Sequence record: NZ_CP044414.1
Length of the DNA stretch: 44,285 nt
Strand: one strand, 5' to 3'
From: a plasmid
Shown here: piece after piece, positions 3,699 through 41,010 of the stretch
How the letters are laid out: each line of letters starts with the position of its first letter
Position numbering within the stretch: position 1 is the first letter of the stretch
Notes under the pieces: generated by a model
What the model was told of the DNA's origin: nothing
What the model saw: the letters and a program-made list of their open reading frames with translations, nothing else
The model's database searches: none
Translations under genes and position numbers: made by a program

Positions 3699-4013
3699 AT
3701 GTTAACAGAAAAAAAAGTCGAGCTTTTGAGATTTTTAATTAAAGGAAGTGAACGTGAATCAACCAGCGTATTCAACAGTATGCTTAGTACTTACGGGCTT
3801 ACTACTAATCAAGCGGAAGTGTTATTGATTCTATTTCAATCAGGTCCACTATCATTAAAGGAACTTGGTCAATTATTAATCTGTGAAAAAGGCTCTCCGA
3901 GTCGTTTGGTCCAATCCTTAATTAATAAAGGTTTCGTTGATAAGTTAGTAAATAAGAAAGATCGCAGGAAGAATTCTATCATTAACAGAAAAGGGAAAAC
4001 TATTAGTGCCTGA
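3699..4013 (+). CDS. MarR-family winged-helix transcriptional regulator (C-terminus continues in another frame to about 4121)
   Basis: LTTNQAEVLLILFQSGPLSLKELGQ...SPSRLVQSLINKGFV is a MarR HTH. A frame change at ggg-aaaa-cta extends it as ...PDINEASHRLNLFILQQIDD. Confidence 0.6.
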   Translation: MLTEKKVELLRFLIKGSERESTSVFNSMLSTYGLTTNQAEVLLILFQSGPLSLKELGQLLICEKGSPSRLVQSLINKGFVDKLVNKKDRRKNSIINRKGKTISA

Positions 4014-4489
4014 TATCAATGAAGCCAGTCATCGTTTAAATTTATTTATTTTACAGCAAATCGATGATGCTAGTTCAATAGACCAATTAATAAAAATCTT
4101 TAAAACTTATTAAGCCAGACTGATTCAGGTGCCGAAAATAAAACGCAGATACCCGGAGGAATGGAAAATAGTGATATAACTTTTAAAACATTTTATAGAT
4201 ACAGAAAGCACAAAAGAACCTGAACATGATCTAAAAAAGCGATTAGCCCAGGAACTTAATAAGGGCGTATCAAGACTTGCAACAAAAAGTTCAACAAGCG
4301 ACTGATCCACAACAAAAATCAGAACTAAAAAACCAGTTACATGAGGTGCACCTAGAAATCAGTAAACGAACGCAAAAGCAGTTGCAAGGATTTTGCTAAA
4401 CAAAATCCCAAGATCAAACAACCCGATCCTGAACCTGATCAAAGTCTGAAACGGTAGCCAGTTTGGTTAAGTCATGCTATAATGTAGGT

Positions 4490-4610
4490 AGGAAAAAGGA
4501 AGTCCCGAGTGAACAGGACTTCCCATGTAGAGCCGTTAAAGACGGTGGCAGATTTTAACGACATTTAATAACCGCTAGCTTGCCAGAGCTAAGGCGGTTA
4601 TTTTTTTTGC
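4490..4610 (+). ncRNA. candidate antitoxin sRNA convergent with the Fst-like toxin gene
   Basis: Extended -10 TGcTATAAT at 4475..4483. 5' hairpin ggaagtcc...ggacttcc. Core motif gtagagccgttaaagacgg. Shared terminator stem ataaccgc/gcggttat followed by T8. Confidence 0.4.
4572..4608. terminator. bidirectional intrinsic terminator shared by the convergent sRNA and toxin genes
   Basis: Stem ataaccgc...gcggttat flanked by A-run and T8. The toxin stop codon lies inside the stem. Confidence 0.6.
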
Positions 4611-4702
4611 TGACTTTTGATCAGCTCAACACTTAATGCGATTAAGGCCACGATAAAGGTACCGAAAGCCAGCATTAATTGTAAAGCGTCCGACACGGAC
4701 AC
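4598..4702 (-). CDS. Fst/Ldr-like type I toxin (34 aa, single TM helix plus charged tail)
   Basis: VSVSDALQLMLAFGTFIVALIALSVELIKSQQKK. GTG start 8 nt after AAAGGAG. Not in the ORF track because of its size. Confidence 0.5.
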   Translation of the reverse strand: MSVSDALQLMLAFGTFIVALIALSVELIKSQQKK

Positions 4703-4818
4703 TTAGGCTACTCCTTTCGTTAGGATTTATGGGCTTTAAGGTTTAACACCATAAGCACCACCTTCTTCCAGTTTCGCCACCGCCTTAACTTCTCTACTTA
4801 ATCCATTATACAGAAAAA
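4703..4818. repeat. 116-bp toxin leader and promoter repeat (second copy at 40895..41010)
   Basis: About 70 bp are identical (accaccttcttccagtttcgccaccgccttaacttctctacttaatccattatacagaaaaatt). A TATAAT sits on the minus strand. Confidence 0.7.
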
Positions 4819-4982
4819 TTAAGGGTCTACCAAGTTTAGTAAAAGACAGAAATAGTGCTTATAAAACAAATCCTTTGAAGCAAAAAAATGTCCACTAGAG
4901 TATACCCTATTGGCCTTTTTTATTTCTGTGCTATACTAGGAATTACAAATGTTCATTAGAACTGTCCAAAAGGAGAATTAGA

Positions 4983-38865: not shown

Positions 38866-39193
38866 CGCAAGCTCCTCCGTTAACTATTATGAAGACCAAT
38901 CTTGGAATCACTATTCTTCTAAAAGTCTAATGATCTAAGAGTGAATCGTACTTTTAGTCATATTATATTAAAGATAATACCTTATTTCACCTATGTGATG
39001 ATAGTACCATTTAAAAAGGACTAGCTTAGTCGCATAATCTTTCACCAAGAGATGTGAATTTGGGGTCCATTTTGAGAAATAGCCACTTGAAAATAAAAGC
39101 CCCTCAATCCTACGATTAAGGACTAAGGGGCTATTTTTTTGTTAAAACATATTTTCGCCCGTATTTTGTGGCGGATAATGCTATAATTTAGAC

Positions 39194-39310
39194 AAACAAA
39201 AAGGAAGCTTTGCACTAACAAGGCTTCCCCAGTAGAGCCGTTTAAGACGGTAGCAATTAATTAGTGATTAAATAACTGCTAGCTTGCCAGAGCTAAGGCG
39301 GTTATTTTTA
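39194..39310 (+). ncRNA. second full copy of the sRNA-like element
   Basis: TGcTATAAT at 39179..39187. Hairpin ggaagc...gcttcc. Core agtagagccgtttaagacgg. Terminator ataactgc...gcggttat. Confidence 0.35.
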
Positions 39311-39357
39311 TTGATAGGGAACCAGTATCTATGATGGAACTATTGGAAAATTAGCAG

Positions 39358-40215
39358 GTGCATAATATGTTTAACCAAACTTATAAACAAATATCAGGGT
39401 ACATTCAAAGAAAGGATATAAATGAAACTTTAAAATTCTCCTATTCTAATTTTTTTACAAAATTTGGTGTATTTATCTTAGCCATGGGATTCGTCTTTGG
39501 ATTATACGCTATTGGTATTGGGCCTACGCAAGGAAATTGGGGAGAAACAGGGAACATGGTCGCTAGAATATTACTGGATATCGTGGGCCCACTGGTAAAA
39601 ATATCTGACGGTATCTTTTTCCTGATGCTATTGGCGTGGGTAGTTATACCATACTACAATCGAGGAATTGCAGCAGTACAGGGCTCGTTGATCGGATTAG
39701 TTTGGTGTCTGACGACATTTTTTTCACTTTGTTCTTTGTCTACGATAGCACTTGTAATAGTACAAGGCTGGATTTCCTTTTTTATTCAACTTGCCATTGT
39801 GCTTATGTATTTTTGTGTATCTATTTATATGTGGATTATGAAAATACACACTAAGGAAACGAAGATAGGTACTCTAAAAGTTACTATTGTTACATTAGGC
39901 GTAATGTTGCTCATTAATTTTGTAATGATTATATACTTAGTTACCTGTAAGCATATAAATTTTTACTTCTCATTAGCTTCAGCATTAATCGTATTTTATG
40001 TTCTATTAATTGCAATAATGTTCTATCAATTAGATAGGACTTATAAAATGATTTATATCCAGAAGTATAATCGACAATTCAGAATTGCATATAAAATACC
40101 AGATAAAAAGTGGTGGTTCACAGCCAAGAGGGCAGCGAAACATCCGCGGGTTTATCCGCCAGTAGAGGAAGGAACAAAGGAACCAACGCCAAAGGAGGGA
40201 AATAAGCATGGATGA
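39358..40215 (+). CDS. polytopic membrane protein, hypothetical
   Basis: 285 aa with about 7 TM segments. Confidence 0.5.
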   Translation: MHNMFNQTYKQISGYIQRKDINETLKFSYSNFFTKFGVFILAMGFVFGLYAIGIGPTQGNWGETGNMVARILLDIVGPLVKISDGIFFLMLLAWVVIPYYNRGIAAVQGSLIGLVWCLTTFFSLCSLSTIALVIVQGWISFFIQLAIVLMYFCVSIYMWIMKIHTKETKIGTLKVTIVTLGVMLLINFVMIIYLVTCKHINFYFSLASALIVFYVLLIAIMFYQLDRTYKMIYIQKYNRQFRIAYKIPDKKWWFTAKRAAKHPRVYPPVEEGTKEPTPKEGNKHG

Positions 40216-40456
40216 TGACGAATCTAATTTCTCGTATAAAACCTATTTATGGGGAATTGTCGGCTTTATAGTTTTCGCATTAATTTATACGCCCCTTGTT
40301 TGGTTACCAATTATAAAGAATCGCCTACAAACGGGAGTTGGAAATAGCACACTCTTTTGGATCGTCAATTGTATCGGCGTAATACCCTTCATCGCAGTTT
40401 ATGGATTAATCAAGGCAATGTTTAAAAAGTGGCGCAAAGAGAAAGGAAGTAAGTAG
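40208..40456 (+). CDS. small membrane protein (2 TM helices)
   Basis: ATGGATGA start-stop overlap with the upstream gene. Confidence 0.45.
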   Translation: MDDDESNFSYKTYLWGIVGFIVFALIYTPLVWLPIIKNRLQTGVGNSTLFWIVNCIGVIPFIAVYGLIKAMFKKWRKEKGSK

Positions 40457-40457
40457 G

Positions 40458-40562
40458 ATGGGAAAAGCAGATTTATTACCGATGGGTTCGTTAGTATATT
40501 TAAAGGGCGGCGATATGAAGTTAATGATTATTGCCCGGGGACCGATTTTTGAAGATAAATAA
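40458..40562 (+). pseudogene. DUF4176-like N-terminal fragment
   Basis: MGKADLLPMGSLVYLKGGDMKLMIIARG. Confidence 0.3.
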
Positions 40563-40737
40563 GCTTTATCAGACTGTTCGGATCTAATTTTCTAAACACG
40601 GCATCAAGTGCCCACAGAATCCGAAGAGACTGACAAACAGCTGGTAAAGCAGCCCGTTTTTTTTTACGACATCATGTGTCCAATAGCGATATGGCTTATT
40701 TGCTTTATCTCCACTTTTATTTTAGGCAAAAATAAAA

Positions 40738-40771
40738 GTGTTGAATCATAATTCCGTCGAATTATGATTCA
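40738..40771 (-). terminator. terminator of the second Fst-like toxin gene
   Basis: gttgaatcataattc...gaattatgattcaac followed by a T-run on the minus strand. Confidence 0.55.
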
Positions 40772-40894
40772 ACACCAGGTTAGTATGTTTTTTTGCCGAT
40801 GATTTTTAATCAGCTCAACAACTAAGGCTATTAGATTGATAATCAATGTACCAAACAATAACATTAGCTGTAATGCGTCCGTAATGGACAACAT
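40769..40894 (-). CDS. Fst/Ldr-like type I toxin paralog (41 aa)
   Basis: MLSITDALQLMLLFGTLIINLIALVVELIKNHRQKNILTWC after AAAGGAG. The 5' leader is a repeat of 4703..4818. Confidence 0.45.
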   Translation of the reverse strand: MLSITDALQLMLLFGTLIINLIALVVELIKNHRQKNILTWC

Positions 40895-41010
40895 GGCTAC
40901 TCCTTTCGTTAGGTTTCCGGTTATCTATGATGATTACACCATAGGTACCACCTTCTTCCAGTTTCGCCACCGCCTTAACTTCTCTACTTAATCCATTATA
41001 CAGAAAAATT
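40895..41010. repeat. second copy of the toxin leader/promoter repeat
   Basis: Matches 4703..4818. Confidence 0.7.

Follow-up and report, generated by a model that had tools for sequence, protein, structure and literature searches.

The plasmid of sequence record NZ_CP044414.1 carries, within the 44,285-nt stretch analysed here (the window), a small gene for a hydrophobic peptide and, facing it, a short non-coding unit. The question raised by this convergent pair is which kind of type I toxin-antitoxin system it forms, and with which part of the toxin mRNA the antisense RNA would pair. In the preliminary description, the locus was taken for a type I module of the par (Fst/RNAII) kind with an Fst/Ldr-like toxin. 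The type I character is borne out, since a gene for a small hydrophobic peptide converges with an antisense sRNA and the Hol_Tox, RatA and rli28 models are matched. The family assignment had to be changed. [quoted passage not shown] This assignment is based on the anatomy of the sequence, on matches to known families, on the finding that the pair is conserved, and on covariation in the long-range helix P1 and in several hairpins. The likeness to txpA, RatA, bsrE and SR5 of B. subtilis is judged from the Pfam and Rfam models and from what has been published on these loci.

The toxin gene and its convergent sRNA

The toxin ORF is located on the minus strand (4598..4702) and comprises 34 amino acid codons, from a GTG start (4702-4700) to a TAA stop (4600-4598); its translation is MSVSDALQLMLAFGTFIVALIALSVELIKSQQKK. 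A Shine-Dalgarno sequence, AAAGGAG (4711..4717, minus strand), is positioned with its AGGAG (4715-4711) 8 nt 5' of the GTG, in a context, GAAAGGAG, that is invariant in the homologue alignment A1. The peptide has a GRAVY of 0.94, with a hydrophobic core devoid of charge and a lysine-rich C-terminal tail (KSQQKK), which confirms the leftward gene for a 34-aa hydrophobic peptide of the preliminary description. In sequence comparisons, this ORF evolves like a coding sequence: substitutions among the homologues number 86, 49 and 31 at codon positions 3, 1 and 2, respectively, and the start codon is conserved as GTG or TTG.

The peptide is matched by Pfam family Hol_Tox (PF16935, TxpA/BsrE/PepG1-like) over all of its residues (1-34 of 34), at 59.6 bits with a cut-off of 23.3 (E = 2.7e-16). 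Hol_Tox was the sole family returned by the Pfam scan of the peptide at E ≤ 1, with neither Fst nor Ldr, and the label of an Fst/Ldr-like toxin is therefore withdrawn. The NCBIfam equivalog for PepG1 (NF041589) scores 41 bits, below its cut-off of 70, and aligns at profile positions 14-47 only, so the peptide is related to PepG1 without being its orthologue. The score with the competence inhibitor ComI (NF052249), 35.8 bits, is also below the cut-off, which is 55.

Both transcription units are preceded by promoter-like elements with 10 of 12 consensus matches. The predicted sRNA promoter (4455..4483, plus strand) is made of a -35-like TAGCCA (4455-4460), a 17-nt spacer and an extended -10 box, TGcTATAAT (4475-4483), with the TG ahead of the -10 found in the promoter scan. 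The predicted toxin promoter (4805..4833, minus strand) is made of TTGGTA (4833-4828), a spacer of 17 nt and TATAAT (4810-4805), and its -10 box falls inside the Rfam rli28 model. Across 18 homologous loci, both -10 boxes are conserved, that of the sRNA as a/gTGyTATAAT, while the -35 regions are variable. In total, four promoter-like sites were found by the scan, with 1.7 expected from shuffles, and three sites by the terminator scan, with 0.8 expected.

The sRNA, a predicted antitoxin of the RatA family, would extend over ~118 nt on the plus strand (4490..4608, predicted ends), based on the Rfam match and on its fold. The RatA model (RF01776) is matched in full (positions 1-91) at 4480-4570 on the plus strand, with 80.4 bits for a gathering score of 49 (E = 5e-12). 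The fold has three hairpins: SL1 (4498-4523), SL2 (4526-4550) and a terminator hairpin (4567-4602) with a G+C-rich stem, followed by a run of eight T (4601-4608). Its energy is -37.8 kcal/mol (z = -4.3), and none of 200 shuffles was as good. The limits of the terminator hairpin are those of the fold, as the terminator scan gives only the inner stem at 4580-4597. The toxin stop codon sits within the 3' arm of this stem, and the T-run is complementary to the toxin's two C-terminal lysine codons. The rightward, promoter-bearing non-coding unit of roughly 120 nt proposed earlier corresponds well to this predicted RNA.

On the opposite strand, the rli28 model (RF01492) is matched over all of its 186 positions (1-186) at 4636-4819, with 65.8 bits for a gathering score of 45 (E = 1.8e-7). 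This match covers the promoter-proximal part of the toxin leader and most of the ORF. The E-values of both RNA families refer to a scan of a 1.5-kb stretch, and both matches are also above their gathering scores on the whole window.

Long-range closure of the predicted toxin mRNA

The predicted toxin mRNA (4490..4798, minus strand) is ~309 nt long and consists of a 96-nt leader, the 34-codon ORF and a 3' UTR of ~108 nt. Folded from 4798 to 4490, it reaches a minimum free energy of -121.9 kcal/mol (z = -8.6). The leader had been described as long and structured. Folded alone, however, its 96 nt are not unusually structured (z = +0.47), and the gap between the two z-scores results from a long-range helix with the 3' UTR. 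The strong folding thus arises from long-range pairing and not from the leader itself.

This helix, P1, joins the 5' end of the toxin mRNA to its 3' UTR by 21 bp. The 5' arm (4775..4797, minus strand) corresponds to mRNA nt 2-24, and the 3' arm (4527..4550, minus strand) to mRNA nt 249-272, a stretch which is also the complement of sRNA SL2. P1 was detected as inverted repeats (I3 and I5), in the minimum free energy fold and by covariation, and was recovered independently by the RNAalifold consensus. In 13 sequences, 98.8% of the cells are paired, against 30-67% in slid controls, five pairs are changed on both sides, and none of 500 shuffles matches this result. In a set of 26 sequences covering several genera, the paired fraction is 90.2%, and that of the slid controls 36-62%. 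Over both sets, the controls pair at about 40%, compared to 90-99% for P1. In the same 26 sequences, support for the leader hairpins (helices 2-4) is poor, with 49-68% paired. A second long-range helix of the minimum free energy fold, between a UAACGA 5' of the Shine-Dalgarno sequence and a UCGUUA in the 3' UTR, was rejected, with 55.7% paired.

The two transcripts had been thought to end at one shared bidirectional terminator holding the toxin stop codon. This part of the preliminary description stands for the sRNA and most likely fails for the toxin mRNA. On the toxin strand, the same hairpin forms SL3 (4567..4602, minus strand), the mirror image of the sRNA terminator, which holds the stop codon and is 95.4% paired in 26 sequences, with five pairs changed on both sides. 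The tail that follows it, GUUAUUAAAUGUCG, is a poor terminator tail. A canonical terminator is predicted 75 nt beyond (4492..4524, minus strand), where an 11-bp hairpin (4524-4497), the mirror image of sRNA SL1, is followed by UUUUU. This hairpin is 89.7% paired in the 26 sequences, and 9 of its 11 pairs show a compensatory change. Given the covariation of P1, the functional toxin mRNA should contain 4527-4550 and therefore read through the shared hairpin. In this model, transcription of the toxin gene most likely continues past that hairpin to the second terminator; some toxin transcripts could end at the first one.

As the toxin mRNA is predicted to extend through the 3' UTR, the whole sRNA would be antisense to mRNA nt 190-309. 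The overlap predicted in silico (4490-4608) covers the 3' UTR completely and reaches 11 nt into the ORF, and a perfect 120-bp duplex between both RNAs has a calculated energy of -233 kcal/mol. At the other end of the ORF, the GUG start codon is sequestered in a 9-bp hairpin (4684..4704, minus strand), with a predicted probability of being unpaired of about zero, with or without the 3' UTR. This start-codon hairpin is 85.7% paired in 26 sequences, and four of its pairs are changed on both sides. The Shine-Dalgarno sequence is partly paired in the predicted folds.

From these elements, the following course of events can be proposed. The two convergent promoters would give rise to a toxin mRNA of ~309 nt and an sRNA of ~118 nt. 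The free toxin mRNA would be closed by the 21 bp of P1, and its translation should be poor because the GUG is held in the 9-bp hairpin and the Shine-Dalgarno sequence is partly paired. The sRNA would dock loop-to-loop at the stop-codon hairpin SL3, the likely site of first contact, and then zip along the 3' UTR, displacing the 5' arm of P1, until a duplex of ~118 bp is formed. RNase III would cut this duplex, and the toxin mRNA would be destroyed. This pathway of contact, extension and cleavage is drawn by analogy with RatA, SR4 and SR5 (PMC6562991). Upon loss of the plasmid, with the sRNA decaying faster than the mRNA, the single-helix peptide of 34 residues would be made, and would damage the membrane, killing or arresting the plasmid-free cells. 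We infer toxicity, RNase III dependence and the relative RNA stabilities by analogy, and post-segregational killing from the plasmid location and the class of the module. The peptide may be only weakly toxic, as is the case for BsrE, which harms cells on overexpression only (PMC6562991).

Counterparts are found in B. subtilis. In bsrG mRNA, nt 1-35 pair with nt 232-262 to form P1, from which SL1-3 branch off; the stop codon is placed in SL3, the terminator directly follows P1, and binding of SR4 turns the 5' arm single-stranded (PMC3834814). For RatA, SR4 and SR5, pairing extends over 100-140 bp at the 3' ends and triggers cleavage by RNase III (PMC6562991). The 3'-to-3' overlap is common to bsrG/SR4, bsrE/SR5 and txpA/RatA (~100-140 bp) and to the module studied here (4490-4608, predicted). 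The closure by P1, the placement of the stop codon within SL3 and a terminator right after P1, known for bsrG and bsrE, are likewise predicted here. Sequestration of the Shine-Dalgarno sequence or start codon and cleavage by RNase III are also features of these systems; for the plasmid module, sequestration comes from the computed folds and cleavage from analogy. The B. subtilis loci are located on chromosomal prophages, whereas this module is plasmid-borne, and their antitoxins are 163-222 nt long with a non-complementary 5' part, whereas the sRNA described here (~118 nt) is predicted to be entirely antisense. The B. subtilis toxins have 30-59 aa, compared to 34 aa here. The Rfam BsrG model (RF01412) scores 16.9 bits in the window, and 25.7-31.4 bits in some homologues, against 55. 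The architecture is alike, but the module is not a BsrG member at the sequence level.

The leader element and the split second copy

The toxin leader contains a further element (4720..4765, minus strand), in which a Shine-Dalgarno-like box, GAAGGUGGUGCUU, is followed by an AUG (4752-4750) that opens a mini-ORF of 10 codons (4752-4720). The box and the AUG are present in all 26 homologues. The mini-ORF itself has no conserved length or sequence; it ranges from 2 to 48 codons, and in many homologues it is reduced to AUG-GUG-stop. In an E. faecalis plasmid homologue (L011, which is not equated with EF3263), the AUG is in frame and leads to a 48-aa form of the toxin, whereas in the window the mini-ORF is separate from the toxin, which has its own GUG start. 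The 48-aa form is a parallel to the long form of PepG1, which has two in-frame starts giving 44 and 31 aa; in S. aureus PepG1, too, this AUG serves as the in-frame start of the longer toxin. The E. faecalis plasmid homologues align with the module at ~70% and have kept P1.

The leader box may also act as an anti-Shine-Dalgarno partner of the toxin Shine-Dalgarno sequence. The helix between GGUGGUGCUU and AAGGAGUAGCCU is 98% consistent and nearly invariant, so its covariation is not significant (44 of 500 shuffles do equally well). It is conceivable, though rather doubtful, that the leader box and AUG form a translational control point which has so far not been described. The AUG would then be a ribosome-loading or start-stop site gating access to the sequestered GUG. 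Alternatively, it would be a decoy keeping the toxin silent.

The window also contains a second module. Its RatA match is found at 39184-39274 and its rli28 match at 40825-41009 (Rfam, whole window), with a Hol_Tox ORF of 41 aa at 40769-40894. An intact version, 97% identical, is present on plasmids of L. crispatus KP-1 and L. argentoratensis, and alignment places an insertion of ~1.49 kb, which splits the module, inside the T-run. The insert is 95.5% identical to plasmid DNA of L. salivarius UCC118 and carries a truncated DUF4176 gene. The orphan toxin lacks the 3' arm of P1 and the antitoxin target; it has acquired a new terminator, and its ORF has grown by seven codons. The orphan sRNA, at 39194-39306, can still form a duplex with the 3' UTR of the first toxin, with a computed energy of -137 kcal/mol.

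This orphan toxin copy, without antitoxin overlap, appears to be tolerated. Possible reasons are that the copy is inactive or that the leader is sufficient to silence the toxin. A control exerted by the leader, if true, would fit the split copy, which has kept its leader in spite of the missing P1 arm, and the apparent tolerance of that copy would be consistent with silencing by the leader independently of the antitoxin.

Family membership, spread and significance

The convergent units and the toxin stop codon inside the sRNA terminator had led to the comparison with par (Fst/RNAII) of the E. faecalis plasmid pAD1, which is likewise a type I plasmid addiction system made of convergent genes with a small hydrophobic toxin. 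Type I systems of both classes occur on plasmids of Gram-positive bacteria. The par system differs by another toxin family, by an antitoxin that pairs with 5' repeats, and by an overlap limited to the bidirectional terminator. The covariance-model search for par-like families suggested in the preliminary description was run: at E ≤ 10, Rfam returned RatA and rli28, and no Fst/par antitoxin family. A repeat search of the region found no direct repeats. Pairing of the sRNA with the 5' 189 nt of the toxin mRNA (-60.1 kcal/mol) is at chance level, as shuffles give -55.1 +/- 5.2 kcal/mol and 36 of 200 are at least as good. The toxin 5' end resembles sRNA 4526-4551 and is not complementary to it, because both pair with the same stretch of the 3' UTR. 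Overlap at the terminator only is also at odds with the covariation of P1, which requires read-through of the shared hairpin, and with the poor tail on the toxin strand. Taken together, the family scans, the chance-level 5' pairing and the missing direct repeats rule out membership of the Fst/RNAII family, and a par-like module with an Fst/Ldr-type toxin and 5' repeat pairing is very improbable.

Two other readings concern the role of the peptide. In Pfam and PGAP, its family is named "holin-like toxin", and the product is indeed a small, single-helix membrane peptide, which could suggest a phage-type lysis holin. The locus has no endolysin and no phage context; it lies beside a MarR-family fragment and a resolvase, and it has a dedicated antisense RNA. 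Moreover, of 50,697 phage records searched by tblastn, only 18, all of S. aureus phages, gave a match (47-53% identity), and in most of them it is unannotated. On gene context and phage search, the lysis holin was rejected as hardly credible. The other reading, a sense/antisense locus whose product is not an addiction toxin, is unlikely, though clearly less remote than the holin. The product would be a small membrane protein serving, for instance, ComI-like inhibition of DNA uptake (compare the sub-threshold ComI score), stress response or phage defence. Alternatively, the rli28-like RNA would be a riboregulator, its level merely adjusted by the antisense RNA. In its favour, Listeria rli28 was originally reported as an sRNA and is induced by stress (PMC9484302), BsrE is weakly toxic (PMC6562991), the orphan toxin of the second module is apparently tolerated, and chromosomal tandem arrays (L024) are not explained by plasmid maintenance alone. 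It is opposed by the coding constraint and conserved start of the toxin ORF, by the toxic or bacteriostatic effect of overproduced EF3263, PepG1, SprG2/3, TxpA, BsrG and BsrE (PMC2887945, PMC6393307, PMC6562991), and by the strong enrichment of the module on mobilizable and conjugative plasmids.

As a toxin-antitoxin module of the Hol-Tox class, the locus is an ordinary, already catalogued member, and published work has already made this family assignment. The TxpA family was widened to the Lactobacillales by Fozo et al. (2010, PMC2887945), with six copies in E. faecalis V583, four in L. casei ATCC 334 and two in Leuconostoc. They placed the short hydrophobic peptide EF3263 of E. faecalis in this family; it is toxic when overproduced, and an antisense RNA of ~110 nt lies over its 3' UTR, as predicted here. 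Systems like bsrE/bsrH have also been noted in Lactobacillus and Enterococcus in a review on B. subtilis (PMC6562991). In S. aureus, SprG/SprF pairs interact via their overlapping 3' ends and their peptides, related to the one described here, are membrane-localised (PMC6393307); the S. aureus phage copies are the sole phage matches to the toxin in the tblastn search. On the L. monocytogenes plasmids pLM80, pLM7802 and pLM5446, RF01492 and RF01776 are convergent and a small ORF lies inside rli28, as in the window (PMC9484302). In RNA-seq, both RNAs of this rli28-RatA pair are among the most highly expressed plasmid genes (Anast et al., PMC9484302), and the authors speculated on a toxin-antitoxin function; host and sequence are different, and the likeness is drawn from the description.

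Similar modules are widespread. The module was found in 297 plasmid records by megablast and, as similar DNA, in 757 by blastn. Most of these records belong to Lactobacillaceae, 92 to Enterococcus, and most of the plasmids are mobilizable or conjugative. The best match to the module is L. paracasei pCD01 (92.5-92.8% identity), and from position 4466 to the right, L. gasseri plasmids share 99.6-99.8% identity with the window. In the plasmid records, the usual annotation of the peptide is "putative holin-like toxin". No sRNA annotation is listed under the plasmid matches, in a PLSDB gene table that lists no RNA genes at all. The convergent RatA-rli28 pair is present in 13 of 16 fetched plasmid loci, 11 of them with both models above the gathering scores. 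It also occurs in contigs of S. mitis, S. pneumoniae, Enterococcus, Liquorilactobacillus, Levilactobacillus, Furfurilactobacillus and Bombilactobacillus. These homologues were collected by blastn against plasmids and by one DNA-pattern scan of genome contigs (16 specified bases), which gave many chance matches in unrelated phyla and from which only Rfam-confirmed loci were kept. A literature search found no dedicated experimental study of any Lactobacillaceae plasmid copy.

Sequence comparison shows that P1, described for bsrG mRNA of B. subtilis, is retained in Lactobacillaceae, Enterococcus and Streptococcus, where it carries compensatory changes; this makes the mechanism testable in those hosts. 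This comparative result is a small added piece of mechanism and will not surprise the specialist. Besides one complete type I addiction module, the window holds a second, broken copy. Such modules probably help to keep mobilizable plasmids in lactic acid bacteria of food and gut, and they can complicate plasmid curing.

Leader of the toxin mRNA and relatives of the module

The leader of the toxin mRNA carries, at 4720-4765 on the minus strand, a Shine-Dalgarno-like box (GGAGGUGGUG or a variant) followed by an AUG, a combination that is conserved in all homologues compared (26/26). The reading frame opened by this AUG is between 2 and 48 codons long. Only in E. faecalis does it lie in the frame of the toxin, resulting in a 48-aa form of the protein, which the long form of PepG1 resembles.

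Three plasmid loci, two from Leuconostoc (L013 and L014) and one from L. sakei (L015), have a toxin leader of the rli28 type and a Hol_Tox gene, and no RatA match was found at any of them at E<0.01. The antitoxin at these loci may be of a different type or may have diverged beyond detection. Weak, full-length matches to the BsrG model were obtained for both Leuconostoc loci. In Bombilactobacillus mellis, seven RatA and five rli28 matches lie within ~4.3 kb of a single contig (JAAEDX010000005.1, 3643-7914; L024), forming a tandem array of RatA/rli28 modules. This genome has more copies elsewhere, on contigs L039 and L042.

Left edge of the intact module

From position 4466 on, the window is 99.6-99.8% identical to L. 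gasseri plasmids, and the DNA to the left has a different origin. The boundary falls inside the promoter region of the sRNA. For the toxin-antitoxin module, identity to its counterpart on one of these L. gasseri plasmids, NZ_CP118089.1, is only about 88%, and the closest match is that of L. paracasei pCD01 (about 92.5%). This pattern suggests either a mosaic junction or a cassette exchange. Just left of the module, a MarR-family reading frame (3699-4113, plus strand) is divided between two ORFs that overlap each other (3699-4013 and 4006-4113) and is probably a frameshifted pseudogene.

A split second module and its orphan sRNA

The window contains another module of this family in two parts, the sRNA side at 39184-39306 (plus strand) and the toxin side at 40769-41009 (minus strand). 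They are separated by an insertion of ~1.49 kb (about 39304-40793) that lies exactly in the T-run common to the terminator of the sRNA and the last codons of the toxin. L. crispatus KP-1 (L017) has an unbroken version that is 97% identical. The insert, 95.5% identical to plasmid DNA of L. salivarius UCC118, contains a truncated DUF4176 gene and two unassigned membrane-like ORFs.

With a length of 41 aa, the orphan toxin ORF now ends in ...RQKNILTWC and has acquired a new terminator. It has lost the antitoxin target as well as the 3' arm of P1, the long-range helix between the 5' end of the mRNA and its 3' UTR, and its mRNA shows no meaningful pairing with either of the two sRNAs. The orphan sRNA (39194-39306, plus strand) retains high complementarity to the intact toxin's 3' UTR, with a predicted duplex energy of -137 kcal/mol, and its terminator region is near-identical to that of the sRNA at 4490-4608. 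Based on this complementarity and near-identical terminator region, the orphan sRNA might provide the intact module with a second, trans-acting antitoxin.
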